Assembly: GCA_030018585.1 (NCBI GenBank)
Contig: JASEHZ010000003.1
Coordinates: 1 to 39,757, forward strand
DNA: 39,757 bases
Direction: 5' to 3'
Source of the DNA: Patescibacteria group bacterium
GTDB taxonomy: Bacteria > Patescibacteriota > Minisyncoccia > UBA6257 > GWB1-50-10
This document shows, piece by piece, positions 3,649 through 33,654 of the stretch. The first letter of the stretch is position 1. The number at the start of each line of letters is the position of its first letter. The position numbers and the translations under genes were made by a program. A model generated the notes under the pieces. It saw only the letters and a list, made by a program, of their open reading frames with translations. It searched no databases and was not told the DNA's origin.

Positions 3649-4371
3649 TTATTCCAATTTCCCTAAAAACACTTTTTCTAATACATCGCTACCCAAAATT
3701 GATTCGGGCGCGCCTTCAATTGCTACCCTACCCTTGTCCAAAATATAAGCCCTACGAACAATACTTAATACTGACTTAATATTATGTTCAACAATCATAA
3801 TCGCGGTTTTATGACGCTCATTTATTTCTTTGATTTTTTGAAAAACTTCCTTAACTATTTTTGGCGCAAGACCAAGCGATGGCTCATCTAATAACAAAAC
3901 TTTCGGATCAACGATTAATCCACGCGCCAAGGCAAGCATTTGCTGTCCTCCGCCTGAAAGCATGCTCGATTTTGTTTTTAATTTATGTTTTAACAGCGGA
4001 AAAGTTTCCAATACTTCGCTAATTCTCCTTTTTACTTCCTTTTTATCCCTCACAATATAACCGCCCATTTCAAGATTCTCTAAAACAGTTAAACTGGAAA
4101 ATATTTGCCGCCCTTGAGGCACAAATGAAATTCCCAAGCCGATTACTTCGTAAGTGACTGGTTTAATTCGCTTTTCATGCCATAAAACTTCTCCAGAATG
4201 AATCGGCGTTAAACCAAAAATAGTTTTTAAAACCGTTGATTTGCCGGCGCCGTTCGGCCCCATCAAAGCCACAATTTCGCCTTCGTCCAATTTAATTTGA
4301 ACGCCGTCCAAGGCGCGAACGCCGCCATAATAAACCGCGATATTTTTAAGTTCTAATAATGTCTCCGACAT
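3649..4371 (-). CDS. livF: Branched-chain amino acid ABC transporter ATP-binding protein
   Basis: GPNGAGKST, VPQGRQIF, LSGGGQQMLA, LLLDEPSLGLAP. Confidence 0.9.
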   Translation of the reverse strand: MSETLLELKNIAVYYGGVRALDGVQIKLDEGEIVALMGPNGAGKSTVLKTIFGLTPIHSGEVLWHEKRIKPVTYEVIGLGISFVPQGRQIFSSLTVLENLEMGGYIVRDKKEVKRRISEVLETFPLLKHKLKTKSSMLSGGGQQMLALARGLIVDPKVLLLDEPSLGLAPKIVKEVFQKIKEINERHKTAIMIVEHNIKSVLSIVRRAYILDKGRVAIEGAPESILGSDVLEKVFLGKLE

Positions 4372-4822
4372 AAAGTTAAAAAGTTATAAAGTTTAAAGTT
4401 CTTAAAGTTTCTTAATAAAACCCGACAATAATCTCGCAGTTTCAAGAGCTAAATTACAACATTGCCCGAAATCTTTCTCGCCAATATACTTCAATTCAAG
4501 TGCTATATAAAGCATCGATCTTACTTCTCCGCAAGAACCTTTTGCGATATACAAAAATTGTTTTAATTCCTTATTACTCCTTCTTTCAAATCCTTCCGCA
4601 ATATTATTAGTTATGCTAATCACCGCTCTTTGGATCTGGTCTCGAAAACTAAAATCGCGATTATCTTTCAAGATCTTATATATCAACAGAGAAAGTTCTT
4701 TGCCTTTTTGCCAAGAAATAAGTTGTTCAAACTTTTCTATTTTCATATCTTTACAACTTTTTACTTTACAAACTTTATAACTTTCTAAACTTGATTAGCT
4801 TGATAACTTTACACCTTTGTCT
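4372..4822. repeat. Low-complexity AAAGTT / AACTTT short repeat arrays in inverted orientation flanking the four-helix-bundle gene
   Basis: aaagttataaagttt (4380-4394) is the exact reverse complement of aaactttataacttt (4770-4784); several more degenerate units on each side. Confidence 0.7.
4402..4746 (-). CDS. Four-helix-bundle protein (23S rRNA IVP / bAvd-like family)
   Basis: FEQLISWQK...DQIQRAVISITNNIAEGFER...FLYIAKGSCGEVRSML signature. Confidence 0.9.
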   Translation of the reverse strand: MKIEKFEQLISWQKGKELSLLIYKILKDNRDFSFRDQIQRAVISITNNIAEGFERRSNKELKQFLYIAKGSCGEVRSMLYIALELKYIGEKDFGQCCNLALETARLLSGFIKKL

Positions 4823-5587
4823 CTACTCCCCAAGATATGCTTCAACTACCTCCTTTTTCTTGAGCACTTCTTCTGGTTTGCCTTCAGCTAATAATTTGCC
4901 GCTATCCAAAACAAAAACATGATCGCAAAGCTCACGGATTAAATTCATATCATGCTCAATTAAAATCACGGTTTTGCCTTGAACACGCAATTCATTTACA
5001 ATCGCTGCTATGATTTTTGCCATTTCCCGGAAAATCCCGGCAAACGGTTCATCAAAAAGATAAATTTCCGCATTCATGGCCAGCGCCCGGGCAATTTCCA
5101 AGAGTTTCCGCTGGCCATAAGAAAGGTTTTTAGCAAGTTCGTGACGCTTTTCCCACAAGTTCACACGACGCAAAATTTCCTCGGCCCTTTTCAAATGAAA
5201 ATCACTATGTTTTTCAAATAAAGAACCAAACACATTTCTTTCGGTCAAAACAATCAGGATATTGTCCAAAACCAGCATTTGATTAAAAAGCCGAACATCT
5301 TGAAAAGTCCGGGTTATGCCGTAAGAAGAAACCTCGTAAGATTTTACTTTTGAAAGCCACACGCCGTCAAAAGAAACCTTTCCATCATCAATTGGCAAGA
5401 TACCACTTAACGCGTTAATGAGCGTTGTTTTGCCAGAACCATTAGGCCCCACAATGCCAGTCACCTTCCCTTTCTCAATCGTAATTGATAAGCCGTCAAC
5501 CGCATACACTCCGCCAAAGTGCTTTACTAAACCCCGTACAACAATTGCAATTGGTTTAATATAATTTGATTCAGTTTGATTTTCCAT
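4823..5587 (-). CDS. livG: Branched-chain amino acid ABC transporter ATP-binding protein
   Basis: FGGVYAVD, GPNGSGKTT, RTFQ, LSYGQRKLLEIARALA, V.EAYLG. Confidence 0.9.
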   Translation of the reverse strand: MENQTESNYIKPIAIVVRGLVKHFGGVYAVDGLSITIEKGKVTGIVGPNGSGKTTLINALSGILPIDDGKVSFDGVWLSKVKSYEVSSYGITRTFQDVRLFNQMLVLDNILIVLTERNVFGSLFEKHSDFHLKRAEEILRRVNLWEKRHELAKNLSYGQRKLLEIARALAMNAEIYLFDEPFAGIFREMAKIIAAIVNELRVQGKTVILIEHDMNLIRELCDHVFVLDSGKLLAEGKPEEVLKKKEVVEAYLGE

Positions 5588-5674
5588 AAATAACTATTTT
5601 GTAAAACGATTTATTACAGTAATTGTCGTACGGGGTAAATTTTTTGTTTCTAATACTTGAGTCAAAATAAAATG

Positions 5675-6808
5675 TTATTCATACTTCACAAACTGACCAT
5701 TTTTTACGGTTTTTACCACAATAGGAATTACTGGATCGCCATTTGAATCAAATTTTATTAAACCGGATACACCATCATAACTCGTTGCATATAATGCTGT
5801 TTTAATACAATCGGTATTAACGCCACATTCTTTTAGAGCGTCGGCGATAATGTAAACCGCATCATACATCAAAGGTGCAAAACCACCAGTTTCAACATTA
5901 AATTTATCTTTATAAGCCTTCATATAAGCTATTGTCTTAGGATTGCTAGTTTGCGCCAGAAAATGATAAGGATAAATAACCCTCTCGGCTAACCCCCTTA
6001 AATCTTCAACTAATTTCTGATTTTCAAATGGCGGACCAGCCAAAAATTTAGTTTTCAAACCCAATTCACTCGCCTGCTTGATAACCATTGATTGTTCTTG
6101 ATAACCACCGATAAAAAGAGCATCTGGATTTTTTGCTTTTATTTTTGTAAGCTGACTTCTAAAATCCTGATCACCCTGCGCGTAGCTTTCCTCGGTAATA
6201 ATTCTACCGCCTAATTTCTCTGCCTCACTTTTTACGGTATCTCTTAAAGCAATGCCGAATTCGTTATTTATATAAATTGTCGCAATGTTTTTAAGCTTAA
6301 GTTCTCTGATTACAACTTTCATAAGTTCAGCAGAATAATAAGAAGCTGATGGCTGTATTCTAAAAATGTAATCACCGGCACTGCTTATTGCCGGCGCAAT
6401 GGCCTCTGCCATAACAATAACTTTTGCTTTCTCGGCGATTGGCGCATTTGCTAAAACAACACCCGAGACCCAAGAACCCAACACAATTGATACTTTATTA
6501 ACGTCAACTAATTTTTGCATAACGCTGGCACCGATTTTTGCATCCGCCTGATCATCTTCATATACAACTTCTAAATTCTTACCATTAATACCCCCCCCCC
6601 CCGCACTATTTACTTCTCCACGAGCAAGCTCAATAGCATTTTGTATTTCCTTGCCATAAAATTCATTCTTGCCACTTAACGGTAAAACTGCACCAATCTT
6701 GATAGTTTCATTCGAAACCGGTTTATTGCCCACGAAATATACAATCACAACGACTACAATAATACCTACCACCCACCACCATATATTTTTTGATTTATTA
6801 GTTTCCAT
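5675..6808 (-). CDS. LivJ/LivK-type ABC substrate-binding protein, N-terminal membrane anchor
   Basis: IKIGAVLPLSG, GING..LEVVYEDD, DFRSQLTKIK, YDAVYI, GVSG.IKFD.NGD. Confidence 0.88.
   Translation of the reverse strand: METNKSKNIWWWVVGIIVVVVIVYFVGNKPVSNETIKIGAVLPLSGKNEFYGKEIQNAIELARGEVNSAGGGGINGKNLEVVYEDDQADAKIGASVMQKLVDVNKVSIVLGSWVSGVVLANAPIAEKAKVIVMAEAIAPAISSAGDYIFRIQPSASYYSAELMKVVIRELKLKNIATIYINNEFGIALRDTVKSEAEKLGGRIITEESYAQGDQDFRSQLTKIKAKNPDALFIGGYQEQSMVIKQASELGLKTKFLAGPPFENQKLVEDLRGLAERVIYPYHFLAQTSNPKTIAYMKAYKDKFNVETGGFAPLMYDAVYIIADALKECGVNTDCIKTALYATSYDGVSGLIKFDSNGDPVIPIVVKTVKNGQFVKYE
6591..6602 (-). repeat. G12 homopolymer within the binding-protein CDS
   Basis: 12 consecutive C on plus strand, encoding AGGGGING. 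Confidence 0.9.
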
Positions 6809-6831
6809 GATTTTTCTTTTTATTCATTTTT

Positions 6832-6972
6832 CCCAGTAGTAGAAACTCGATTAATTTTTATTTAATGAAATTCGACTTGTTTTATAACTCTTGTATTTTA
6901 TGCCCATTTTCGTGATTTCTCGAAAAATCTTTTATTCGCCTGTAGCGAAACAATCGAGTTTTCACTACTGGG
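6832..6972. mobile_element. Empty MITE-like element, 21-bp imperfect terminal inverted repeats
   Basis: cccagtagtagaaactcgatt (6832-6852) / aatcgagttttcactactggg (6952-6972), 19/21 match; ttttt on both sides. Confidence 0.6.
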
Positions 6973-7092
6973 TTTTTGACCTTTTTCTGCTTCTGCTATT
7001 TCCGCCGACTAAACGGAACGCATGTTTTTTACCCCCACACCATAAGATAAATTATAACTTATACTCTCCCATTAATCCTTGCGGACGGTAAA

Positions 7093-7376
7093 CCCCCACA
7101 CCAAATTTATTTTAAACTCTCCACTAATCTCTTTTTGAGTTGTGTAAAGGCTCGACTTCGAAGTTTTGGGCTTGATTCTCTGCGTCGAGCGTCCGACTCC
7201 GCTTTGTACGCCTCGAAACACAACAACTCAAAGGGACAACGAGTTTTTGTGGAAAATATTTTTCCACTATTATGCTCTTGAAGTCGTCGTCTCAAATCAT
7301 TAATCGAACCAATATAAAATTTATCGTCTTTCAAGTTTTTTAAAATATAGACGTAGAACATAATTTGGTGTGGGGG
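7093..7376 (-). mobile_element. Inverted-repeat-bounded GIY-YIG cassette 1
   Basis: acccccacaccaaatt (7092-7107) / aatttggtgtgggggt (7362-7377) perfect; taaa direct repeat at 7089-7092 and 7377-7380; extra arm copy at 7028-7042. Confidence 0.7.
7107..7361 (-). CDS. Small GIY-YIG nuclease (UPF0213/SLX1-like)
   Basis: FYVYIL...FYIG...DLRRRLQEHN...RE motif set. Confidence 0.85.
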   Translation of the reverse strand: MFYVYILKNLKDDKFYIGSINDLRRRLQEHNSGKIFSTKTRCPFELLCFEAYKAESDARRRESSPKLRSRAFTQLKKRLVESLK

Positions 7377-7383
7377 TAAAGCA

Positions 7384-8250
7384 TCATAATTTATATTCCC
7401 CGATCAGACCCTGAGGTCTATATAACATTAACAGCATCAATATAATCCCGTAAATCACCTGACGCATTTGAGCTGCAATTTCATTAGGCATGCCCACAAA
7501 GCGCAAAATTTCCGGAATTAAAACCAAAAATATCGCGCCCAAAATTGAACCGCGCAAATTCGCAAGCCCGCCCAAAATAATTATTGCCAAAATAAAAATT
7601 GATTCGTTTAAAGTAAAAGTTGACGGGTCAATAAAAGAAATATAAGCCGCGAACAAAGAACCAGCCACAGCTGCTATAGCTCCGCCAATAACAAAAATAG
7701 AAAGCTTATAATGATGGGTATTATAACCGAAAACCTGCAATGCTTTTTCGTCTTCCCGAATACCTTTTAAAACTCTGCCGAAAGAAGAATCAACAACAAA
7801 ACAAGATATAAAATAAACAAGGACTGCAAATAAAACAACCAACATTAAAAATATCAGATTCTCGGAAAAATTAATGCTAAAAATGTTTGGCCTTGGAATT
7901 CCTGGAATACCAAGCGGCCCGCGAGTTAAATCCTGCCAATTCAAAAAAATACTGAAAATAATCACATTAAAACCGAAAGAACCTAAAGCATAATAATCAT
8001 CTTTAAACCGGTTTAAAATCATACCCACTGCAAGCGCAATAATACTGGAAACAATAACTCCTATCAATATAGAAACAAAAAAACTCACTCCAAGTTTTGT
8101 GGCAAGAATTGCTGTAGCATAAACGCCAATGCCGTAAAAAGCCGCGTGAGTAACAGATAAAAGCCCCGTATAACCCACAACCAAATTCAAGCTCAAACTT
8201 AAAATCACATAAATCGCTATAAGGATTGCTAAATGTATTAGATATTCCAT
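7384..8250 (-). CDS. livM: Branched-chain amino acid ABC transporter permease
   Basis: SLNLVVGYTGLLS..HAAFYGIG, LTRGPLGI, S.FGR.L..IREDE, RPQGL.G. Confidence 0.9.
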   Translation of the reverse strand: MEYLIHLAILIAIYVILSLSLNLVVGYTGLLSVTHAAFYGIGVYATAILATKLGVSFFVSILIGVIVSSIIALAVGMILNRFKDDYYALGSFGFNVIIFSIFLNWQDLTRGPLGIPGIPRPNIFSINFSENLIFLMLVVLFAVLVYFISCFVVDSSFGRVLKGIREDEKALQVFGYNTHHYKLSIFVIGGAIAAVAGSLFAAYISFIDPSTFTLNESIFILAIIILGGLANLRGSILGAIFLVLIPEILRFVGMPNEIAAQMRQVIYGIILMLLMLYRPQGLIGEYKL

Positions 8251-8507
8251 CCCGTACGAAACAGGAAACGCTTTAAACGAGATTTAATAAAACGTTTTCC
8301 TCCTCCTGATTTTAAATATAACTCTCTCGACCTTGCATCGTCTTGATCAATACAAGCCTCATAATAAATTAATTTGAACGGACCTCGTCCTTTTGTATAA
8401 GTTGACTTGCCATCATTATGTTCTTTAAAACGCTTCCGTAGATCATTTGTATACCCAGTATATAATTTACCATTTTTTAAACTCTTCAAGATATAAACGT
8501 AAAACAT
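8238..8507 (-). CDS. Small GIY-YIG nuclease (UPF0213/SLX1-like); probable start ATG 8507, upstream ATG 8534 is the duplicated livM start
   Basis: MFYVYILKS...LYTGYTNDLRKRFKEHN...RELYLKSGGG. Confidence 0.88.
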   Translation of the reverse strand: MFYVYILKSLKNGKLYTGYTNDLRKRFKEHNDGKSTYTKGRGPFKLIYYEACIDQDDARSRELYLKSGGGKRFIKSRLKRFLFRTGWNI

Positions 8508-8529
8508 GTCTGATTTGTTTCGTACGGGA
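8250..8529 (-). mobile_element. Inverted-repeat-bounded GIY-YIG cassette 2 inserted at the livM start codon
   Basis: atcccgtacgaaaca (8249-8263) / tgtttcgtacgggat (8516-8530) perfect; tccat direct repeat at 8246-8250 and 8530-8534. Confidence 0.8.
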
Positions 8530-8535
8530 TCCATA

Positions 8536-9396
8536 TTATTTATTGATTAACCCGCGAGGACGGAAAATCAGAAAAATTATCAAAAGCGCAAAAGCAATCG
8601 CGTCTTTCCACTCGCCGGAAATCTGCCAAATACCGAAATTTTCCACAAAGCCCAAGAAAAACGCTCCAAGGACACCACCATAAACGCTGCCAATGCCGCC
8701 GATAATTGACGCAATCACGCCCTTTAAAAGCAAGCTCATACCCATAGTCGGCTCAATACCCGTATCAAAACCAACCAAAATACCGGCAAGTCCGGCAATC
8801 GCCGAACCAATAAAAAATACCCGGCCAATAATTCGGTTGGTATTAATGCCAACAATTTTTGCCACTTCTTCGTTATCGCTTGTTGCCACAATCGCTTTAC
8901 CGAAAGAAGTTTTTTTAAACATAATTAAGAGTCCAGCCATAATAACAATGCCGCACAAGAAAATAATTAACTGGGTTTGGGTAATGATACCGCCAAAAAT
9001 TTCATAAGTTTTTTCAAAACCAATGTTCCGCGAAAGCGTTTGAAATTGGCTCGAAAATAGAATCGCAATGATCGCCTGAATCACAGTAAAAGCTCCAAGC
9101 GACGCCACCAGAAGAACCATGTTTGAAGCTTTTCTTTTCCGGAGCGGTAAATAAACAATTTTATCCAAAAGATAGCCGATAAATCCGGCAACAAAAATTC
9201 CGGCGACAACACTCAAATAAATATCAACTCCAAGCATCTGCGCTAAAAAGAAAACAATATAAGCGCCCACGGCCGCTAAAACACCGTGAGCCAAATTAAA
9301 GAACTTGGTCGTGCTATAAATCAAGTTAAATCCAAGCGCAACCAAAGTATAAATTGAACCGGCAATAATGCTATTTAAAATAAGTTGAGGCAACAT
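8536..9396 (-). CDS. livH: Branched-chain amino acid ABC transporter permease
   Basis: GSIYTLVALGFNLIY...NLAHG, IIGGIGSVYG, FRPRGL. Confidence 0.9.
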   Translation of the reverse strand: MLPQLILNSIIAGSIYTLVALGFNLIYSTTKFFNLAHGVLAAVGAYIVFFLAQMLGVDIYLSVVAGIFVAGFIGYLLDKIVYLPLRKRKASNMVLLVASLGAFTVIQAIIAILFSSQFQTLSRNIGFEKTYEIFGGIITQTQLIIFLCGIVIMAGLLIMFKKTSFGKAIVATSDNEEVAKIVGINTNRIIGRVFFIGSAIAGLAGILVGFDTGIEPTMGMSLLLKGVIASIIGGIGSVYGGVLGAFFLGFVENFGIWQISGEWKDAIAFALLIIFLIFRPRGLINK

Positions 9397-9453: not shown

Positions 9454-9481
9454 ACCCAGCCATTCCATGGAATGGCTGGGT
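9454..9481. terminator. Perfect 28-bp palindrome; probable terminator or REP-like hairpin after the binding-protein gene
   Basis: acccagccattccatggaatggctgggt; minus-strand tail TTCGTTT. Confidence 0.6.
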
Positions 9482-9518: not shown

Positions 9519-10691
9519 TCACTTTTCTGTATATAATTCACTTTTCCCTCCTTTTATAATCAAAACTTTAAAATCTACATTTTTTACTTCCCTATCAGCA
9601 CCAAATTCAATCACCGGCATACTCTCCGCTCCTTTATAAACGGTTTTTGCTAACTCATCAATTATTGCTTTATGATCAGTGCCAACCCTACCAATCACCT
9701 GAGCAAGAATTTTTATGGCATCGTAAGCAAAAGCCGCAAATGATTGATAAACTTCTTTTCCAGCAAAACTATTAAGTTTTTCCCTAAATACCGGCGAATC
9801 ATAAGTTTTAGCAACTGTATACAATACACCTTCAGCTTCTTTAACGCGCCAGATTTCCTCGCCATCAAAGGCATCGCCGCCGACAATCGGAACATTAACC
9901 GCTAATTCTTTTAATTGCTTGATGGCAGCAGAACCACTTGCTGGATAAAGCGCAGTATAAACAACATCAGGCTTGGCAGCTCTTAATTTTGTAACTAAAG
10001 TTCTAAAATCTTTAATATCTTGAGCAACCCCTTCGTCAAATACTACTTGCCCGCCCAATTCTTTAAAACGATTCACAAAAACTTCATTAATCCCTTGACC
10101 CCAATCATTTTTCACATACAAAACTGCAACTTTTGTTTTCTTTAAAGTGTTAAAGATATATTCAGCCGCAAATTTTCCCTGAAAAGCATCGGAAAAATAA
10201 ATTCTGAAAATATGATCGCCAATTTTCGTCAGATTCGGCGCCGAAGCTGTTGTAATTACAACCGGCAGATTATTTTTTTGAGCCACTGGCAATCCAGGAC
10301 CAGCCGCTGCCGAACAAACCGGGCCAATCATTGCTACTACCTTATCGATTTCTGCTAATTTAGTAATCGCATTTACGCCTTTTTTTGAAGTACAGGTGTC
10401 ATCCTCAATAATAAACTCGATTTTCCTTCCATTAATGCCGCCGGCGTCATTTACTTCTTTTACAGCCAATTGCGCGGCAGCAGCTACAGCCTCGCCGTAA
10501 CTTGCCGCCTCACCAGTCATTGGAAAAGAAGCGCCAATTTTAATTGGGCTAGTATCGGCTGCTACTCCAGTTGGGTTTGTTGTTGTGGTATTTCCTCCAC
10601 CTAATGTGGCTAAAAGGTAAATAATACCAGCAAGAACTACCACCATTATTACCCAAAGCCATGTCTTTGATTGTTTTTCTACGGTTTCCAT
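9519..10691 (-). CDS. LivJ/LivK-type ABC substrate-binding protein
   Basis: IKIGASFPMTG, AGGINGRKIEFIIEDD, IGPVCS, YDAIKI; N-terminal TM. Confidence 0.88.
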   Translation of the reverse strand: METVEKQSKTWLWVIMVVVLAGIIYLLATLGGGNTTTTNPTGVAADTSPIKIGASFPMTGEAASYGEAVAAAAQLAVKEVNDAGGINGRKIEFIIEDDTCTSKKGVNAITKLAEIDKVVAMIGPVCSAAAGPGLPVAQKNNLPVVITTASAPNLTKIGDHIFRIYFSDAFQGKFAAEYIFNTLKKTKVAVLYVKNDWGQGINEVFVNRFKELGGQVVFDEGVAQDIKDFRTLVTKLRAAKPDVVYTALYPASGSAAIKQLKELAVNVPIVGGDAFDGEEIWRVKEAEGVLYTVAKTYDSPVFREKLNSFAGKEVYQSFAAFAYDAIKILAQVIGRVGTDHKAIIDELAKTVYKGAESMPVIEFGADREVKNVDFKVLIIKGGKSELYTEK

Positions 10692-12846: not shown

Positions 12847-13241
12847 GCTGTTTTTGACTAAAATTTCAAGCCCAATTGCAGCGCAGAAAATTTAGCTGCG
12901 AATTTGAGCACCGAGCACATAAAACATAAAACCAGTGTTCGATATTTCGACTTGTTGATTTGTATTATTAAAATTGATGAATATCATATGTTATCTTTAG
13001 TAATTTATGTGCTCGGTAAGTCACCGCACTATCCCGACTCCGACTGCGGTCGGAAGAGGTTTAGGTGCGCGATCCCGCACCCTCCTGAACCCATAATCTT
13101 ATCATCTCTTTACGGGCTCGGGAAGTGCGGGATCCTCGCACCTTCGACGCTCATTCCATTCGCGGGAAGGTGCGGGAGTTTTGTCTATAAAATTACTTCT
13201 TCGCCAGCTGGCGAATCGTAATTTTATACAAAGCCCTTACT
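12841..13241 (-). promoter_or_regulatory. Candidate structured cis-regulatory RNA upstream of rplQ (copy A)
   Basis: Multiple perfect stems and colinear motif conservation with 15520-15802. Confidence 0.65.
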
Positions 13242-15802: not shown

Positions 15803-15916
15803 TTAACCTTGCCTTTGTTTATGTTTGGGATTCTGACAAATAACATAAACGCGCCCTTTGCGGCGAACTGTCTTGCATTTCATACAAATCTTTTTTACTG
15901 ATGATCTTACTTTCAT
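15803..15916 (-). CDS. rpmJ: 50S ribosomal protein L36 (missing from the ORF track, 37 aa)
   Basis: Manual translation [37 protein letters not shown]; CxxC...C...H zinc ribbon. Confidence 0.97.
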
Positions 15917-16042
15917 CCCTCACCCTTTGAGAATCATTAAGAATAATTCTCTTATAAAATATTGACCTTTTGTTATATTGATTATAGTCATAAATAAATT
16001 TGGATAAATAACCCTGGAAAAGAATCCTCAAAGGGTGAGGGA
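15916..16042. mobile_element. Empty MITE-like element abutting the rpmJ start codon
   Basis: atccctcaccctttgag (15915-15931) / ctcaaagggtgagggat (16027-16043) perfect 17 bp; flanks ttca / ttcg. Confidence 0.6.
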
Positions 16043-16202
16043 TTCGTCCCTTTTATCGATTTGGATAAATGCTTAGTATTCATAACATAAATTTTATAAT
16101 TTGGTTTTGGTTGTTTCTAGCGGGTTCATTCCCCACAAAAAATACGAACGCTAAATTGCTTCAAAACAAAATATCCGCAAAAATCTTAATTGTACAATCT
16201 GT

Positions 16203-16509: not shown

Positions 16510-18147
16510 TTATTCCACTGTTATATTAACTCTTGTTAAGTCTTGCGGCACCCAATTTACCCAAAAAGGCCACAAAGAAACCTTAGCGCCGTCTAATCCG
16601 GGAATAGCTGAAATCCTAATTTTTAACATTTCTTCTGAAACGCCCCCTAAATTATTTCTAAAATCTTCTATATCAAAATTGGGCCAAAATATTATCGAAC
16701 CTTTGATCGGCAAAGACATTATTTCATTATCAAAATCAATCTGAGGTTTACCGTAATCAAGTGACATTTCTTTTATTGCAGGATTGTAAGAAACGGCTGG
16801 CTTTAGTTTCTCGAAAATACTTTCTTTTAACGCCTCCTCCTCAAAAATAAAACGTTTCATCTCGCCATCAATAAAAACACTAAATTTGTTGGGGTCGTCT
16901 TTTAGTGGTTCGATGTTTTTTGCTAAAACGCTGAAATGACTATTATTGTCAAGAAGCTTAAAACGGTTATTAAGCACGATCAGCATTTCCGCATCAAGAG
17001 CATCTTTCAAGGATTTTACTGTTGCTTCTTCTCCTTTGGCTAAATCGTCTTTAGTCGGAGAAGCTTTTTCACCAATAAAACCGCCGCTCATTAACGTTAG
17101 AGATTCGGCGTAAAAACTATCGTATTTTGGCGTACCTTTCAAACCCGGGATCTTCCATGAAGAAGAGGACGGTACGTTATAATCTTCCCCCGCTTCAGCC
17201 GCAGTCACGGTTGCTTCGATTTTTGAAGAGACAATTTTACCATTTACAATTGAAGCACCGGGCACGACAATTCTTTTATCCAATTTAAAAATCTTGCTGG
17301 TCGGAGATTCAAACCTTGTTGAAGCAACTAAAATTTGCGGTTCGGAACTGTAAGAATTATAAATAATAAGTTTACCCGCCGCCCTTGTCTCTATTTTTTC
17401 TCTGCCTTGAGCTAAAAAAGACATTTCCAAATTGCGTCGGGCAATTAATAATTCACCAGGCAGAATAATGCTTTTGTTTTCGCTTACAACAGGTGTTGAA
17501 ACTTTACTATTTATAACAACTGTTTCGTCAAAATTTGCCGATATCTCTTCTAAATCAATAGCAATATCCGCTCTAGGCAAAACATTAAAAGCCAAACCAT
17601 GAACGCCGAACAAAAAAGACGCGATAATGACAATTATAATCAACCATCTCAAAATAATATTTTTTGTTTTTTTCTTCTTGACTGGCTTTTCGACTTCTTT
17701 TACGTCTTCCGGTAAAATTGTTTTTTCAACAGCTCTTTCTTTTTTTAAATCCTTCTTGGTTTTTTTTAATACTTCCGATGTCTTAATTGTTATTTTTTCT
17801 TTATTAATCTCCTCTATGATTTTTGGCTGTCTTTTTTTAAAATCCGAACGGGGTAAAATATCAGAAACCGCCCTTTCCCTGATCCTAAAAACCGGATTGG
17901 TCGCTTTTATATCGGTAAGCGACGCCAATTCTAAAATATGTTCGTCAACAGATTCTACTAAAATTTCTTTACCGGCGGTCTTACTTTCTCTTTTTAAAAT
18001 TTGAAAATTATTCACTGACGAACCGAGAACAGAATCTCTGGGTACGTTCAATATAACTTTCTCCGCCGAAGCCTTAATTAAACGATCAACGGCCGCTTCA
18101 ATGCCGTCTGAACGATCAAGAAAAATTTTCTTTTCTGTTTTAGACAT
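16510..18147 (-). CDS. Membrane-anchored protein with baseplate-J-like extracellular region
   Basis: Cytoplasmic N-domain, single TM, A.GKLIIYN...PQ.LVA.TRF...VTA.EAGEDYN pattern, V.LWPFW C-terminus. Confidence 0.55.
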   Translation of the reverse strand: MSKTEKKIFLDRSDGIEAAVDRLIKASAEKVILNVPRDSVLGSSVNNFQILKRESKTAGKEILVESVDEHILELASLTDIKATNPVFRIRERAVSDILPRSDFKKRQPKIIEEINKEKITIKTSEVLKKTKKDLKKERAVEKTILPEDVKEVEKPVKKKKTKNIILRWLIIIVIIASFLFGVHGLAFNVLPRADIAIDLEEISANFDETVVINSKVSTPVVSENKSIILPGELLIARRNLEMSFLAQGREKIETRAAGKLIIYNSYSSEPQILVASTRFESPTSKIFKLDKRIVVPGASIVNGKIVSSKIEATVTAAEAGEDYNVPSSSSWKIPGLKGTPKYDSFYAESLTLMSGGFIGEKASPTKDDLAKGEEATVKSLKDALDAEMLIVLNNRFKLLDNNSHFSVLAKNIEPLKDDPNKFSVFIDGEMKRFIFEEEALKESIFEKLKPAVSYNPAIKEMSLDYGKPQIDFDNEIMSLPIKGSIIFWPNFDIEDFRNNLGGVSEEMLKIRISAIPGLDGAKVSLWPFWVNWVPQDLTRVNITVE

Positions 18148-18151
18148 AAAA

Positions 18152-19303
18152 TTAATTATTAGCGATCAGCCATTTGGCTCTCCGCCGGAGTAATTGATTT
18201 AAAAACTCGTACTTCGGCGCACTAAAAGGATAAACCAACAATGCTAAAATATTTTGATTTAGCTTGACCGAAAAATCTTTGACGCGTTTATTAATATCTA
18301 TTGAAAAACCTTGCAATCTTAATGTTTCGCAAACCGCCGCTAATCGAAAATGAACCCGATTAAAAAAGGTCTCTAAAAAAGGTAGGTTGAAACGGAACAA
18401 AAAATGGGTTGTTGATTTTAAACCCGAAATACTCGAATAAGTCGGCGAAAGCATTTTTAAGAAGTCTTTAACTTGCTTTCTTATTTTTTGTTCTATAAAC
18501 CTTTGAAATTTTGATGAAATGCGCAGTTCTATATAACTATTTAAAATCTGAGAAGCAACGTCATTATCAATTCTCAAATCTTTCGCCAACTCATCCAAAA
18601 TACGCACCCTGCCCCAGTCATACCCCTTTAAATAAAGGGATTCGTCTTCCTTGTAGACAAAAACTGTCGTATATTCATCAGACACAGAAACAACCAAATC
18701 ATTCAAGCTGGCGAGAATCGAAACTAAAATAGCCGTCGCTTCAACAACAATAAAATCTTTAGCCCAAACTCTGAATTTCTCCACAAGCTGACTCACCGAC
18801 CTTGGAATAAAAGTACCGCGAAACCTCAACGAAAAATCTTTCCCTCTAAATCCTTCTGGATTAAAAACATGGTGATTGCCCAACCTAACGTCAACCACTT
18901 CAACGTTAAACAGAATTAAATCCATTTCAGCGACATTCATTTTTTTAGCCGCCCACGAACGATAGTGATTTAAAAATTCCCAAAGACCCCGAAATAAAAG
19001 ATTGTCTATCTCCGTTTCGTTTAAAGGAATTGTCGGTTCGGATCTTTTTAAATTAACGATGCTTTCAATGGTGGTTGCTTTTTTTGAATTTAAGCCTAAA
19101 ATCAAACGATCATACTGCCTCAATGGACGACGTAAATTGTTTAACCGGCCGCTTTTTCTGCTTTTTTCAATCATTATCTTTTTATCTAAATTATCAACTT
19201 GCGCGGCAACAACTTCAACACAATGATCAAGTTCTTCAATAACCAAACAACGTTCAGTTTTGCCGCCAAATAAATTCGAAATCTTGTTTAAAAGGTTAAC
19301 CAC
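18152..19303 (-). CDS. Hypothetical protein, possibly a degenerate FtsA-like actin-fold protein
   Basis: Length, position before baseplate-J-like gene, KR..P..P....E and V.NP.GF.GK segments; ATP motifs not recognisable. Confidence 0.4.
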   Translation of the reverse strand: MVNLLNKISNLFGGKTERCLVIEELDHCVEVVAAQVDNLDKKIMIEKSRKSGRLNNLRRPLRQYDRLILGLNSKKATTIESIVNLKRSEPTIPLNETEIDNLLFRGLWEFLNHYRSWAAKKMNVAEMDLILFNVEVVDVRLGNHHVFNPEGFRGKDFSLRFRGTFIPRSVSQLVEKFRVWAKDFIVVEATAILVSILASLNDLVVSVSDEYTTVFVYKEDESLYLKGYDWGRVRILDELAKDLRIDNDVASQILNSYIELRISSKFQRFIEQKIRKQVKDFLKMLSPTYSSISGLKSTTHFLFRFNLPFLETFFNRVHFRLAAVCETLRLQGFSIDINKRVKDFSVKLNQNILALLVYPFSAPKYEFLNQLLRRRAKWLIANN

Positions 19304-19370
19304 TTATTGATATTATAACACAAGTAAAAAACGACTCTGTGCTTCTATTCCTGCCTTACTACTGTAATAG

Positions 19371-20735
19371 CTAATGATTTTTCACCGATGCTTCGATAAA
19401 ATTAGAAGGATTGGCAAAAACCTTTTTCGAAACGGTTATTATTTTCCCCCGAAAAGACTCGTGAGCAGGGGAAAAAACTTTTAATGTTTCGGCAGAAAAT
19501 GGATCATACGTCTCCCCGTTAATGGTTATCTTTATATAAAATTCCTGGACGCCTAAATTTATCATATCTTTCACCTTAAACATTGGTGATAATTCTGGCT
19601 CAAGCCGCAACGCATCTTCTCCGCTAACCCGAAAAACTATAATCGTGCCAGCGTTTCCCAAAACAATTGATTGGACCGTCGGAGAAAGCTGCTTTAAATA
19701 TTGATGCGATAAAGTAAGACAAAACTTATATTTTCTTGCTTCAGAAACTAATTGTTCAAAAATTTCACTAACCAAGTTATGAAATTCATCAATATAAATA
19801 TAAAAATCTTCGTAATTTGAATCTTTTCTGAAAGCTCGATAATTCATTGCCTCTTTTAGCTTTAAAACAAAAAGCGCCCCCAAAAAGCTTGAATTTTCCT
19901 CACCTAATTTTTCTTTAGTAAGATTTATCAACACAATCTTTTTTTGACTGATAAAATCAATAAAATTTATTCTGTTTTCTTTTTGGGCAAAAACTTTCCC
20001 AAGCACCGGATCGGAGATAAATTGAGCGAACTTATTAAGAAGCGGCATTGCTGTTTCCCCCTCAAAACGGTCAAACCAACGCTGGAATTCAACAACCCAA
20101 AAATGCTTAACAATTTCATCCTGCACAAAGCCTAAAACTTTTTCCCGAAAACTAGCATCAGTAAGCATCAAAGTTATACTCCGCATTGTTGCTTCCGGAT
20201 AATCTAAAAGAGCGAGGCAAATGAATCTGAAAATATACTCTAATTTATGCGACCAGCTGGCGCCAAAGAACTTTTTTATAGTGATGATTAACCCCTCAAC
20301 TGCCTGATGTTTTAAATTTTTATCAATACCAACTAACGGGTTGAAAAAGAAAGTATGCTTTTCATCAGAAAAATCTAGAAAAACTACATCCTCCACTCGT
20401 TCTTCCGGAATAAAATCTAAAATTGAATCCGCTAAATCACCATAAGGATCGATTAAACAAAGGCCATGTCCATAAGCAATATCTTGCCGAATTAAAAGTT
20501 CTAAAAGCTTTGATTTTCCAACCGCGCTCTTACCAATAACATAAACATTGCGCCGCCGATCGCTTCTTTTAATACCGAAAATGAATTTCTTTTCTTCAAG
20601 TGCCGCAACATAATTAGTACGTCCTATAAAAGAAACTTCGGCAGAATTTTCTCTACCATAAATGGGAAGTTCGGGCGGCGGCGGCGCGTATTTAACTATT
20701 TGGATCTTACTCGTATTAGGCATAACCAAAAACAA
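19371..20735 (-). CDS. VirB4/TraG-TraD/HerA-like P-loop ATPase
   Basis: Walker A GKSAVGKS, IDPYGD, Walker B YIYIDEFHN, EARKY...L.HQYL.QL, GN.GT...FR. Confidence 0.8.
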   Translation of the reverse strand: MFLVMPNTSKIQIVKYAPPPPELPIYGRENSAEVSFIGRTNYVAALEEKKFIFGIKRSDRRRNVYVIGKSAVGKSKLLELLIRQDIAYGHGLCLIDPYGDLADSILDFIPEERVEDVVFLDFSDEKHTFFFNPLVGIDKNLKHQAVEGLIITIKKFFGASWSHKLEYIFRFICLALLDYPEATMRSITLMLTDASFREKVLGFVQDEIVKHFWVVEFQRWFDRFEGETAMPLLNKFAQFISDPVLGKVFAQKENRINFIDFISQKKIVLINLTKEKLGEENSSFLGALFVLKLKEAMNYRAFRKDSNYEDFYIYIDEFHNLVSEIFEQLVSEARKYKFCLTLSHQYLKQLSPTVQSIVLGNAGTIIVFRVSGEDALRLEPELSPMFKVKDMINLGVQEFYIKITINGETYDPFSAETLKVFSPAHESFRGKIITVSKKVFANPSNFIEASVKNH

Positions 20736-20737
20736 AA

Positions 20738-21232
20738 CTAAATAACCCCCACCTCTTTAAAAAACTTCTCATAACCACCCAAAACTTCTCTTGCTTCATC
20801 TAAAGAAAGGTTAAATCCTGGCGTATGGACAAGTTCGTTGCGAATTCTATGCACCCGCCAAAGTTCATCAATACTTTTTAAATCCCAAGAAGCTAAAGCC
20901 TCAAGACGATCAGCGGTATGCACTCCTTTTAAACCTAAACGTTCCAAAATGTCGTCCATAATTTTATCCGCTTCAATAATCGCGAGAACATAAGAATTTG
21001 GCGGCGCAGAATAAGCTTTAATCAAAACTGCTTCCCACCTTTTCTTAAACTTCTCGTCCTTAAGAAGAGGTGTTTTAAAATCGGCTTTCGGTACTGAACC
21101 AAAATCCGGTTTTAATGATTTTATTTTTTGGACAGTTAAAATAATTCCGACCACAAGCACAATATCAACTACTATAAAAATAACAGCTGAAACAAAGAAA
21201 AGTGGTTTTAAAATTGACATCAAGATGCTCAT
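20738..21232 (-). CDS. Hypothetical membrane protein
   Basis: N-terminal TM; AIIEADK..D..L...G..G....RL, H.IRN.LVH motif; operonic spacing. Confidence 0.65.
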   Translation of the reverse strand: MSILMSILKPLFFVSAVIFIVVDIVLVVGIILTVQKIKSLKPDFGSVPKADFKTPLLKDEKFKKRWEAVLIKAYSAPPNSYVLAIIEADKIMDDILERLGLKGVHTADRLEALASWDLKSIDELWRVHRIRNELVHTPGFNLSLDEAREVLGGYEKFFKEVGVI

Positions 21233-21241
21233 ATAAAATTC

Positions 21242-22639
21242 TTATTGAAACCTTTCCAAATCTTCTTCTTCGCCAAAAATCGCAAGACCGGCTGGCGGAC
21301 CGGTTTTCCGACTCTCCACTCTTTTTATGTGCGGAGCGGTTAAAACAATGGCGGTTGGCGGATGAAAAAGCGTAGCCAACCCCCCAATGTTCATTACAAA
21401 TCTGCGCGAAGCATATGAGGTATTTAATGAAAAATTGCCACCCAACCAAAAACCAGCCCAAGTTTCCGGCGGTATTTCCCGGTGTATAAAATTATAAAGA
21501 AACCGATTCTTGCTAGCCCAACCACTGATCATTGATTGATCGGTCGGATTTTTGACTGGCGATGATTGAGTGCCGGCCGCTGAATTTGATTTAAAAGAAT
21601 TAAAATTTAAAGCTGAATACTGGTTAAACGCGCTTATCAATCCGCCTTTTACAAAACTTTCAAAAAAAGTCGGCCGAGGCGCTAAATAAAGCAGTCGAAT
21701 TAAGGTATCAAAAGCCGGCTTTGAAAGATTCCTTTCAACCGCTTCAAGAACTTCGTTTTTCCCAGGCGAACGACCAAGCGACATTTCAGACGTACCACTT
21801 TCGCTTTTTGACTTAATCGTGGTCGGCTTTTGTAAATCAATAACAAATTTTCCCCACTTATCTTTCCAAGAACTTCCGGCCGGCGCAATTAAAATCTGAA
21901 TACCTACAGTCTCATCCTTTTTTGTTTTTCCTAAAACTTCCAAAAAATTGGAAATTGGATCAATCTGCTTTTCTTCTGCCGCACTCTCAAAATACGGATA
22001 AGTCTTGATAGGCAAGGCCTCTTCTTTAGCCAAGACCATTTCTGCGCCCCACACATCTAAATCCCGCTCTTCAAGTTCTTTTACGTTTGCGGGTAATTTT
22101 GAAATATAATCATCAACTAGTTCGACTTCAATATCGGGGTAATACGAGAAAAGGGCGGTTTCGATTATATTTTTATGTTGAGCCGGTGTTCTTATGAAAA
22201 AATGAATTTCGTTTTCGCCGGCAAAATTAACTATTTCCAAAGAAAACCAACACGTTACTATCCCGTCAATATATTTATCTTTAAAACTGTCAGCAGAATT
22301 CCGAAGCGAATGAATAGCCGCAAGCACCTGTTCCATGGCTTGAGGGCTTTTGGTGATTTCCCGCGGCATTTTAATTTCCAAAAGAGCAAACTCAATTGTG
22401 CGTTTAAAAACTTCCTGCCGATAATACCGATAAACCGATCCGAAAATCGGAAATAAAATAATAAAAAACCAAAACCACCAAAACATAAGAAAGTAACGTA
22501 AAATCACTGACAACAAATCTGAGGCGGAAATTAAGGACGTTCCTCCTACAACAACAAGTATCAAAAGAAGCCAAATTTCTTCCTTTCTTAAGGCTTCAAC
22601 AAGAAAATCTATTATGTGTTTAAAAATCTCTCTTATCAC
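21242..22639 (-). CDS. Hypothetical membrane protein associated with the ATPase
   Basis: Two N-terminal TMs, LLEIKMP.E..KSP.AME, WFSLEI, LATLFHPP. Confidence 0.65.
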   Translation of the reverse strand: MIREIFKHIIDFLVEALRKEEIWLLLILVVVGGTSLISASDLLSVILRYFLMFWWFWFFIILFPIFGSVYRYYRQEVFKRTIEFALLEIKMPREITKSPQAMEQVLAAIHSLRNSADSFKDKYIDGIVTCWFSLEIVNFAGENEIHFFIRTPAQHKNIIETALFSYYPDIEVELVDDYISKLPANVKELEERDLDVWGAEMVLAKEEALPIKTYPYFESAAEEKQIDPISNFLEVLGKTKKDETVGIQILIAPAGSSWKDKWGKFVIDLQKPTTIKSKSESGTSEMSLGRSPGKNEVLEAVERNLSKPAFDTLIRLLYLAPRPTFFESFVKGGLISAFNQYSALNFNSFKSNSAAGTQSSPVKNPTDQSMISGWASKNRFLYNFIHREIPPETWAGFWLGGNFSLNTSYASRRFVMNIGGLATLFHPPTAIVLTAPHIKRVESRKTGPPAGLAIFGEEEDLERFQ

Positions 22640-33407: not shown

Positions 33408-33475
33408 TGTTTTTTAAAACAAAACGCATAAATGCCCCTTTCTTAAAACTCTAAGGGGTATGCAATCAAACCTTA

Positions 33476-33618
33476 CCCAGTAGAAGAACTGTGATTACAA
33501 TTCCTCTTTAACTAAAAGATTATATTGTTTTAAAAATAAGAGCAAGTATAAATTAATTTTTGTCTTTAAAGAATCAAAAAAAGAATTGAGCTAAAACTAT
33601 CACAGTTTCTCTACTGGG
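33476..33618. mobile_element. Empty MITE-like element upstream of uvrA, same end type as 6832-6972
   Basis: acccagtagaagaactgtgat (33475-33495) / atcacagtttctctactgggt (33599-33619), 19/21 match; flanks ctta / ttta. Confidence 0.6.
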
Positions 33619-33654
33619 TTTAGAATAAAACATTAAAAAGTCAAACAACTTTAC

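Follow-up and report, generated by a model that had tools for sequence, protein, structure and literature searches.

Small inverted-repeat cassettes at operon junctions of a Patescibacteria genome: insertion polymorphism, start-codon sites, and a candidate GIY-YIG nuclease partner

Results

Cassettes and gene-less elements of a liv operon

We describe here a set of small inverted-repeat elements in a 39,757-nucleotide stretch of DNA (the window; contig JASEHZ010000003.1, positions 1 to 39,757, forward strand) from a Patescibacteria group bacterium. Its assembly, GCA_030018585.1 (here G000), comprises 682 kb in 43 contigs with 37.5% GC and is 99.5% complete. The elements of interest lie mainly in an ABC-transporter operon with the gene order livH-livM-SBP-livG-livF (SBP, solute-binding protein gene), in which three cassettes hold one small gene each, two for GIY-YIG nucleases (PF01541) and one for a four-helix-bundle protein (PF05635), and other elements hold no gene at all (Table 1). 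All genes of interest in this region are on the minus strand. The window contains two unrelated kinds of elements, those ending in CCC…GGG, which include both GIY-YIG cassettes, and the PF05635 cassette. Comparison with related genomes gives good support to the mobility of these elements.

Table 1. Genes and elements of the window (IR, inverted repeat; ORF, open reading frame)
Feature	Position	Strand	Basis and remarks
Host operon livH-livM-SBP-livG-livF	3649-9396	-	Pfam; carries the insertions
livF	3649-4371	-	ORF + Pfam
PF05635 cassette between livG and livF	4376-4788	-	IR 4376-4394 / 4770-4788, 19 nt, 95% (18/19), plus staggered alternatives
PF05635 four-helix-bundle gene	4402-4746	-	PF05635 E 1.6e-31; TIGR02436 E 7.5e-31
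livG	4823-5587	-	ORF + Pfam
Gene-less element, 104 bp, within livG 5' coding region, SBP-livG junction	5532-5635	-	IR 16 nt, 94%
SBP, between livM and livG	5675-6808	-	ORF + Pfam
Gene-less element, 141 bp, upstream of SBP start	6832-6972	-	IR 6832-6852 / 6952-6972, 21 nt, 90%
Lone extra copy of cassette-2 end	7028-7042	-	15/15 complementary to 7366-7380; 50 nt outside cassette
GIY-YIG cassette 2, ends CCC..GGG, directly 3' of livM stop	7093-7376	-	IR 7092-7107 / 7362-7377, 16 nt, 100%
GIY-YIG gene of cassette 2	7107-7361	-	PF01541 E 3e-14
livM	7384-8250	-	ORF + Pfam
GIY-YIG gene of cassette 1	8238-8534	-	PF01541 E 1e-18
GIY-YIG cassette 1, ends TCCC..GGGA, livH/livM junction	8250-8529	-	IR 8249-8263 / 8516-8530, 15 nt, 100%
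livH	8536-9396	-	ORF + Pfam
Perfect palindrome, 28 bp, between SBP2 and livH	9454-9481	.	IR search + genome census
SBP2, second solute-binding protein gene, first in mRNA order	9519-10691	-	ORF + Pfam
Gene-less element between rpoA and rplQ	12910-13017	-	Arms of the type of the GIY-YIG cassette upstream of nusA, contig C1
Gene-less element, ATCCCTCACCC type, infA-rpsM region	15916-16042	-	Census IR 15915-16043; flanks TTCA/TTCG, 3/4
Gene-less element, CCCAGTAG type, upstream of uvrA	33476-33618	-	Census IR 33475-33619; flanks CTTA/TTTA, 3/4

A preliminary description of this DNA, made from the window alone, had proposed that the three small genes of the liv operon are bounded by inverted repeats, and this is what we found, with 15/15, 16/16, and 18/19 nt matching. 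In predicted single-strand minimum-free-energy structures, taken without shuffled sequences for comparison, all three cassettes fold with the terminal stem closed. Cassette 1 is flanked on the plus strand by the 4-mer TCCA at 8246-8249 and again at 8530-8533, and its ORF, which opens with the duplicated livM ATG, continues in frame across the left arm and shares its last 13 nt with the beginning of livM. Cassette 2 has TAAA on both flanks (plus strand), and its arm type recurs together with the same protein clade in three related genomes (G053, G059, and G047). The lone extra copy of its end could be a remnant of a second element or a duplicated end.

The gene-less elements that the preliminary description had listed at 6832, 9455, 15916, and 33476 are all present, with exact or three-in-four flanking matches as claimed. 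The 141-bp element upstream of SBP has exact TTTT/TTTT flanks; its arms are of the type found in the GIY-YIG cassette at rplJ-rplL (contig C30), and its interior is homologous to a sequence at C30:13913. The element upstream of uvrA sits between a 150-aa ORF (33710-34162) and the uvrA start at 33407. The palindrome between SBP2 and livH, whose flanks read by eye as GAAA/TAAA (3/4), is one of seven CCATGG-centred palindromes in a census of the genome, six with TTCCATGGAA centres and one with ATCCATGGAT, and a related hairpin lies at C9:4822. Its nature is ambiguous, as it could be the bare-hairpin form of an element or, equally, an ordinary terminator-like hairpin.

Other statements of that description need revision. 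The fourth liv junction, between SBP and livG, had been taken as free of elements, and no host gene had been thought to be disrupted; it is at this junction that the 104-bp gene-less element interrupts livG. The element has TTTA at both sides and its insertion point falls after approximately codon 10 of livG. The old livG frame meets a TAG inside the element and, two codons further on in the same frame, the present livG ATG (5587), which also lies inside it; in silico excision of the element with one TTTA yields a frame colinear with the LivG N terminus of the related genome G040. Since the element lies inside livG and the frame both stops and restarts within it, one element did hit a host gene, which appears, from this reading of the frame, to have been rescued by the stop-restart. 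The same description had treated all elements as one family. The CCC..GGG termini are indeed shared, and the PF05635 cassette, which is of another kind, had been lumped in with them. Its finding that the window is free of transposase, integrase, and reverse transcriptase stands, with no such domain at E ≤ 1e-8 in the other 36 ORFs of the window.

We also noted a 21-nt inverted repeat (95%; 5553-5573 / 5744-5764) with one arm at the 5' end of livG and the other at the 3' end of SBP, which may form a second, larger stem enclosing the whole SBP-livG junction along with the 104-bp element.

Empty alleles and 4-bp duplications in related genomes

LivM is present in 5 of 41 related genomes, the window's own included, and the best two relatives are G040 (73% identity) and G017. 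Both carry the operon as livH-livM-livG-livF with junctions that are, in this order, 1 nt, overlapping, and 4 nt, and no insertion is found at any of them. The livH-livM junction of G040 reads livH TAA-t-ATG livM, that is, stop-T-ATGGA; the window has this same string, followed by the cassette and then by ATGGA again. With the ends taken as TCCC..GGGA, the duplicated 4-mer at livH-livM is TGGA, which is single-copy in G040. The 4-nt spacing between livG and livF in G040 corresponds to the site that holds the PF05635 cassette in the window.

We extended the comparison to a genome of the same genus, G001, over 663 kb, with 10.9 kb of one contig left out. Both flanks are syntenic in G001 for 23 of the 39 G000 elements tested. 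Among 12 orthologous sites inspected by eye, nine are empty in G001, including the site of the GIY-YIG cassette between the pilin and prepilin peptidase genes, and three hold the same or another element. The duplicated 4-mers TGAA, TATG, and TTAA are single-copy in the empty alleles, and the CCCGTTAGA family has 20 pattern hits in G000 versus two copies in G001. Together with the junctions of G040 and G017, these empty sites bear out the earlier proposal that the elements are mobile insertions. Flanking duplications at chance frequency had been named as an outcome that would speak against it. Identical 4-mers were found on both flanks in 13 of 34 elements of G000, and at least three positions match in 21 of them; permutation of the right flanks among the 34 elements gave a mean of 2.6 identical pairs and a maximum of 8, with none of 2000 permutations reaching 13.

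At rplJ-rplL, the gap measures 322 nt in G000, where it holds a GIY-YIG cassette. In G001 it measures 47 nt and contains only a bare hairpin that links the first 13 nt of the left arm to 19 nt of the right arm. Among more distant relatives the gap ranges from 18 to 95 nt, mostly without such a hairpin. As separate observations, unrelated long hairpin elements occupy the same junction in G005, G014, G020, and G004 (loci L089, L092, L080, and L090), and some of the rplJ-rplL hairpins of other genera consist of short tandem repeats like those of PF05635 arms, with no gene.

Element families across the genome

Besides UvrC, G000 has six small GIY-YIG loci, five of which are tightly bounded by inverted repeats: the two of the window, one at rplJ-rplL, one between the pilin and prepilin peptidase genes, and one upstream of nusA. 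The sixth (G000:C34:6350-6700) is degenerate and frame-shifted, has no flanking arms, and adjoins a tRNA-like sequence and a 504-aa serine recombinase recognized by eye; it may be part of an integrated element.

Every arm type of a loaded element, that is, one with a nuclease gene, has gene-less look-alikes elsewhere in G000. Loaded and empty forms had been proposed before, and their termini are shared; the idea that gene-less copies are deletion derivatives of the nuclease cassette is rejected, as only 12-20 nt per end align. The most abundant family, ATCCCGTTAGA…TCTAACGGGAT, is approximately 120 bp long and has 20 pattern hits, always co-oriented with genes; 46 arms were counted in the genome. 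The upstream stop codon adjoins the left arm, and the right arm runs into ATG or GTG in 17 of 19 distinct copies. The arms co-vary between copies. In the interior of approximately 95 nt (for example L009-L021), a conserved TTACGG is followed by a hairpin that is likewise conserved, shows compensatory changes, and stacks on the 3' arm. This hairpin could be a recognition hairpin for the nuclease or a structured RNA; an Rfam search with 20 element loci gave no credible match (best E 0.089, below the gathering score).

Bare hairpins with ATCCCGTTAGA-type arms only 6-22 nt apart were also seen in related genomes (G031:C12:22930-22957, G066:C7:104714-104746, and G020:C8:76549-76592), so that one arm type spans a size series from approximately 28 bp to approximately 280 bp.

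Association of nucleases and arms across the order

Small GIY-YIG genes are found in 59 of the 61 sampled genomes of the order. Forty such loci were analyzed, the first in listed order, leaving out the window's own, two that begin no more than about 120 nt from a contig end (G064:C17:114-320 and G077:C89:17-238), and, by oversight, G050:C52:4009-4230. With shifted windows as the chance control for inverted repeats, as permutation was for flanking duplications, a repeat score of at least 12 was reached at 12 of the 40 loci versus 2 of 152 same-size shifted intervals. In a tree of 45 small GIY-YIG proteins, these 40 and five of G000, arms scoring at least 11 are found in 17 of 21 members of one clade versus 3 of 20 of the other. 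The arm-poor clade holds YhbQ/UPF0213-like proteins and three proteins similar to the Ssn nucleases (see Discussion) that have flanks like the NTS repeats of Ssn. Particular arm sequences go with particular nuclease subclades in different families of the order.

The 11-mer ATCCCGTTAGA occurs in 33 of the 61 genomes, with 1 to 65 copies, while its reversed control occurs 0-2 times. Of the 14 genomes with at least nine ATCCCGTTAGA arms, 8 have a close homologue of the cassette-1 nuclease, versus 3 of the 47 with fewer arms; the threshold for a close homologue, at least 59% identity, was set once the data were known, and related genomes are not independent in this comparison.

Distribution beyond the order and the start-codon rule

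A scan of one genome per GTDB species for both exact 11-mers, ATCCCGTTAGA and TCTAACGGGAT, spaced 240-270 nt apart gave at least 120 stretches; the figures below rest on 80 loci with 82 elements among the matches listed. In 76 of the 82, the element encodes a protein that shares 49-79% identity (median 65%) with the window nuclease. Typically, the ORF begins with an ATG just outside the left arm, which is read as NPVRD, and ends in SLTG, encoded by the right arm, with its TGA overlapping the next ATG. The right end forms an ATG in 74 of the 82 elements. Among the 69 with enough flank, a co-oriented ORF follows in 52, 48 of which start no more than 3 nt from the element end, and a co-oriented ORF precedes in 48, 26 of which stop within 12 nt. 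The earlier suggestion that the terminal stem keeps the upstream stop close to the downstream start fits this arrangement, the 3' arm abutting a start codon in these 74 copies as in the 17 of G000.

By record title, the hosts among the matches listed cover many Patescibacteria lineages (Saccharibacteria, Paceibacterota groups, Doudnabacteria, and others) and also include metagenome-assembled genomes labelled as Zeta- and Gammaproteobacteria, Planctomycetes, Bdellovibrionales, Desulfobacterales, and Nitrospirales. The GC content of the element is below that of its flanks in 9 of the 10 listed loci outside Patescibacteria. A scan of viral contigs for the loaded-element pattern gave 0 stretches. 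In an alignment of 38 of the 82 ORFs, selected by a start-motif filter, 33 positions are at least 90% conserved, among them Y.Y, YTG, LRKR, H, YYEA, and RE, which presumably include the GIY-YIG catalytic residues.

Search for a mobility factor

Searches of G000 found no match to Y1_Tnp (PF01797), DDE_Tnp_1, rve, or TnpB-type domains; other transposase families were not searched. The genome has one tyrosine recombinase and one serine recombinase (the latter recognized by eye), neither of them associated with the elements. Its single reverse transcriptase, of 343 aa, is an unlikely mobility factor, because it belongs to a diversity-generating retroelement (G000:C34:8300-13300; L310). The two copies of its 118-nt repeat are 88% identical, 10 of their 14 differences affect A positions, and the variable one lies at the 3' end of a 228-aa ORF; no recognizable Avd gene adjoins it, and Rfam gave no match around the reverse transcriptase.

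The nuclease is the only ORF seen between the arms in the 82 listed copies, among which the 240-270-nt spacing could not hold a larger gene. A pair of arms 1.07 kb apart in G020, considered as a larger autonomous element, turned out to be two separate elements around a membrane-protein gene. The window nucleases, of 84 and 89-98 aa, consist of the catalytic domain of approximately 75 residues only (TIGR01453, 28 bits versus a cut-off of 56). PF01541 is their only domain over the Pfam cut-off, with a weak T5orf172 match below the cut-off in the 84-aa protein, and the nearest solved structure is UPF0213 BH0048 (E 1.4e-11).

The four-helix-bundle cassette

The arms of the window's PF05635 cassette are arrays of an AAAGTT-like unit, made of 6-8-nt units and their complement; they have no CCC..GGG ends, no flanking duplication was seen, and the right arm ends at the livF ATG. 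The gene is the sole PF05635 gene in G000, and PF05635 genes occur in 41 of the 61 genomes of the order, with up to seven per genome. Arms scoring at least 12, in the form of 6-8-nt tandem repeats, were found at 20 of 29 sampled PF05635 loci versus 2 of 111 controls. In many of the loci a stop codon is part of the repeat unit, and 18 of 20 loci examined lie directly after a co-oriented gene. In NCBIfam, the window protein scores above the cut-off of TIGR02436, a generic four-helix-bundle model, and below those of two subfamily models derived from PRK12275. At four loci of the order (L160, L167, L162, and L165, in G043, G075, G073, and G025), the PF05635 match lies within an open frame of 264-715 aa, and the four-helix-bundle sequence may there be read through from, or fused to, the neighbouring gene.

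An intervening sequence (IVS) of the Coxiella 23S rRNA has an S23p ORF in the loop, an inverted-repeat stem, tandem heptamers beside the ORF, and a mid-stem RNase III cut, according to the description in PMC4990558. Because its architecture matches that of the Coxiella IVS, we regard the PF05635 cassette as an IVS-type element in an mRNA operon, with tandem-repeat arms rich in stop codons and a stem that is probably an RNase III substrate. G000 has an RNase III gene. The IVSs of Coxiella and Leptospira, as described in that source, share with the cassette the four-helix-bundle ORF in the loop, the inverted-repeat stem, and the tandem repeats in the arm by the ORF, and differ from it in lying in helix 45 or 25 of 23S rRNA rather than between genes of an ABC-transporter operon. 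Non-intron insertions in rRNA genes of the candidate phyla radiation are reported to contain both PF05635 and GIY-YIG ORFs (PMC11270868); copies at operon junctions, such as those of the window, are not described in the available part of that paper.

Discussion

We found that the liv operon and many other operon junctions of this genome contain minimal cassettes whose insertion is documented by empty alleles and flanking duplications, and the sequence evidence, within its limits, supports a transposase-free family of such cassettes. The best explanation, to which we give a probability of about 0.5, is that there are two families of small cassettes and that the GIY-YIG protein of the first acts as the element's own nuclease. 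Elements of this family have CCC..GGG or TCCC..GGGA termini, make a 4-bp target duplication, and carry one of three kinds of cargo: a single-domain GIY-YIG nuclease gene of 85-95 aa (in total about 280-310 bp), a non-coding core of approximately 95 nt with a conserved subterminal hairpin (about 120-145 bp), or almost nothing, as in a bare hairpin. In our judgment, the odds are about even that the stem formed by an element's arms is recognized by its nuclease and that this enzyme makes loaded and gene-less copies spread. The nuclease would recognize the terminal-repeat stem, probably in single-stranded DNA by analogy with its relative Ssn, and start excision or copying, and the gene-less copies would ride in trans. 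Which enzyme cuts, whether in single- or double-stranded DNA, and what coupling and processing take place at the RNA level are points that we infer.

The sites at which the elements are found suggest how insertions may persist in operons. Surviving insertions lie at stop/start junctions, and the TG of the host start codon is usually part of the duplication. Since the element's last A rebuilds an ATG, the host gene keeps a start directly behind the stem. The old host start codon now opens either the nuclease ORF or a short ORF with its stop inside the element. In the transcript, the terminal stem would join the upstream stop and the downstream start and so preserve translational coupling. In a bolder form, which we put forward tentatively, the cassette of approximately 280 bp, with terminal inverted repeats of 11-20 nt and one 85-95-aa GIY-YIG gene, would be an autonomous transposable element of a new class, with the nuclease as its only protein, a 4-bp duplication, landing at start codons, horizontal spread within Patescibacteria and beyond, and derivatives both bare and like MITEs (miniature transposable elements with inverted repeats). 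Such an element would take the host start codon for its own ORF and give the host a rebuilt ATG behind an RNA stem.

Several observations weigh against the nuclease as the element's own mobility factor. The gene-less copies have their own conserved interior and hold only 12-20 nt per end in common with the loaded form, so the nuclease gene could be a later lodger. The bare hairpin at rplJ-rplL of G001 can be read as the scar of a loss or as a pre-insertion site. Four of 16 relatives' loci in the clade linked to inverted repeats have no detectable arms, and six of the 14 arm-rich genomes (G049, G028, G054, G068, G043, and G025) have no close nuclease homologue. Among the matches listed in the cross-phylum scan, identical flanking 4-mers are present in only 47 of 81 copies, and because TGAA dominates on both sides, a target preference is hard to separate from a duplication. 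To our knowledge, moreover, GIY-YIG enzymes form no covalent DNA intermediate, and we know of none that performs strand transfer or makes a 4-nt stagger.

The chief alternative builds on several of these points. The elements could be MITE-like transposons moved by a conventional transposase that is unknown or now absent, with the GIY-YIG gene as a homing-type lodger whose product cuts gene-less hairpins with matching arms, into which the gene is then copied by repair from a loaded copy. The gene-less interiors, with only the arms common to both forms, and the six copy-rich genomes with many arms and no close nuclease homologue would be expected on these grounds, as would a bare hairpin with the same arms exactly at the site of the loaded form in G000; that no GIY-YIG enzyme is known to us for strand transfer also favours it, and the 4-bp duplication and CCC..GGG ends, with one TTAA case, resemble what we take to be features of DDE-type IS1380/piggyBac elements. 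We nevertheless consider it rather unlikely, given that G000 has no Y1, DDE_Tnp_1, rve, or TnpB match, that the nuclease is the sole ORF seen in the 82 listed copies (for arm spacings of 240-270 nt), that the only long-spaced arm pair inspected proved to be two distinct elements with a host gene between them, and that arm type is associated with nuclease clade in different bacterial families. A domesticated host system is quite improbable. It would have an Ssn-like nuclease cut single-stranded DNA at repeats and so modulate recombination, transformation, or defence, with repeats retained for that role and elements that are now immobile. In its favour, the Ssn of Neisseria acts in just this way on NTS repeats (PMC11893778), an Ssn-like protein with NTS-like flanks shares 46% identity over 67 residues with the window nuclease, and 33 alignment positions of the nuclease are at least 90% conserved in 38 aligned copies. 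Against such a system, the 20 versus two copies within the genus and the many empty sites in the sister species argue for recent gain or loss and not for fixed functional sites, and the patchy occurrence of cassettes across phyla, with a GC content below that of the flanks in 9 of the 10 hosts outside Patescibacteria among the matches listed, looks like horizontal spread.

It is hardly credible that the repeats arose in place and serve solely at the RNA level, as terminators, RNase III sites, or stabilizers, with the small genes as ordinary operon members. Strong stems do form in the mRNA sense, a U-rich tract lies 3' of the palindrome at 9454-9481 on the mRNA strand, and an RNase III gene is present; this explanation is already contradicted by the insertion polymorphisms, as orthologous junctions are empty in relatives, and also runs against the flanking duplications above chance, the recurrence of identical 11-nt termini in different phyla (at least 120 stretches), and the element inside livG. 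For the PF05635 gene, one could think of an Avd-type accessory protein, encoded in trans, of the genome's diversity-generating retroelement. Avd belongs to the PF05635 fold family, the gene is the only one of its kind in the genome, and the retroelement has a reverse transcriptase and a repeat pair with no recognizable Avd adjoining. We give this little credence, since the gene lies on another contig than the retroelement and inside an unrelated operon, has the repeat-armed cassette architecture seen at 20 of 29 relatives' loci, with up to seven copies per genome, and matches the generic TIGR02436 over the cut-off while the PRK12275-derived models stay below theirs.

The closest published system is the Ssn/NTS pair of a GIY-YIG single-stranded DNA nuclease and hairpin repeats, reported in 2025. 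Ssn nucleases, of approximately 94 aa, are encoded by genes flanked by hairpin repeats, bind these repeats, and cleave DNA only when it is single-stranded (Chenal et al. 2025, PMC11893778), and the authors note that the repeat-gene-repeat layout resembles an insertion sequence. The window nucleases are likewise single-domain proteins of about 90 aa, their genes are flanked on both sides by a repeat, and many gene-less repeat copies are present per genome, in G000 too, as described for Ssn in that paper; the 67-residue core with 46% identity noted above links the window nuclease to a relative's Ssn-like protein. The differences are also clear. In the window, the flanks are single arms that pair across the gene, whereas each Ssn flank is a local hairpin in the published description (PMC11893778), and the arm sequences are unrelated to the NTS motif, NTS-like flanks being found only at the relatives' loci L057 and L064. 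The CCC..GGG termini, 4-bp duplication, empty alleles, and start-codon sites set the window elements apart, and the proteins of G000 fall in a clade separate from the Ssn-like ones in the 45-protein tree (support 81/83, on 88 columns only).

The elements also resemble insertion sequences and MITEs in their terminal inverted repeats, in a duplication that is single-copy in the empty allele, and in their presence/absence polymorphism between relatives. Bacterial MITEs and palindromic elements (Correia, RPE, ERIC, and REP/RAYT) are short, gene-less inverted-repeat elements with many copies that are co-transcribed and make target duplications. What differs here is the candidate autonomous partner, an 85-95-aa GIY-YIG nuclease and not a DDE or HUH transposase, and an unusually strict positional rule, by which the right end makes the host ATG; unlike the IS200/IS605 and REP/RAYT systems, moreover, G000 has no match to the Y1 HUH transposase (PF01797). 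Free-standing homing endonuclease genes of the seg and mob types in phage T4, and its mobA / gene 60 bypass cassette, offer a further parallel, in which a nuclease gene lies between essential genes and a trick at the RNA level is involved. As there, a small nuclease gene sits between essential genes without harm and the host gene would still be expressed by such a trick. In contrast to T4-type and I-TevI-type enzymes, the window nuclease has no DNA-binding extension, and the elements have terminal inverted repeats, a target duplication, and abundant gene-less copies.

In the literature searched for prokaryotic GIY-YIG elements with inverted repeats and target duplications, for the terminal motifs, and for PF05635, only the Ssn and rRNA-insertion papers were relevant, and their supplements may list related clades. 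Relative to that literature, the insertion polymorphism, the 4-bp duplication, the start-codon rule, and the cross-phylum distribution, as read from genome comparisons, appear to be new, and we regard the elements as a variant on two themes, the Ssn-type pairing of nuclease and repeats and the rRNA intervening sequence. Should the nuclease be what moves it, the cassette would be roughly the smallest autonomous mobile element of bacteria and the first insertion-sequence-like element run by a GIY-YIG enzyme, extending Ssn from a nuclease with repeats to insertion. Whichever factor moves them, the elements offer a model for parasite life in the tightly packed operons of very small genomes, where insertion at the start codon, the duplication, and a closing stem would keep the upstream stop and the downstream start adjacent. 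They also bear on annotation, as they create spurious N-terminal extensions (as with the start at 8534), can replace N termini (as in livG), and account for many Patescibacteria genes annotated as "hypothetical GIY-YIG" or "four helix bundle". Finally, paired nuclease and hairpin specificities may serve as tools for single-stranded DNA, as proposed for Ssn (PMC11893778).

Additional observations

An Rfam search of the window gave no family at threshold, and no rRNA match was found either. Upstream of the operon, a 257-aa ORF at 10839-11612 matches a periplasmic-binding-protein domain over its first third only and may be a truncated third SBP gene. Five successive large ORFs (164-545 aa) without a Pfam match at E ≤ 1e-8 occupy positions 16510-22639. 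Elsewhere in G000, many perfect palindromes, of several families, are centred on 6-bp sequences that resemble restriction sites (CATATG, CAATTG, CTTAAG, CCTAGG, CCATGG, and CGTACG), with examples at C25:57-92, C25:27995-28032, C9:7342-7377, C24:1536-1569, C27:4217-4240, and C19:11144-11197.

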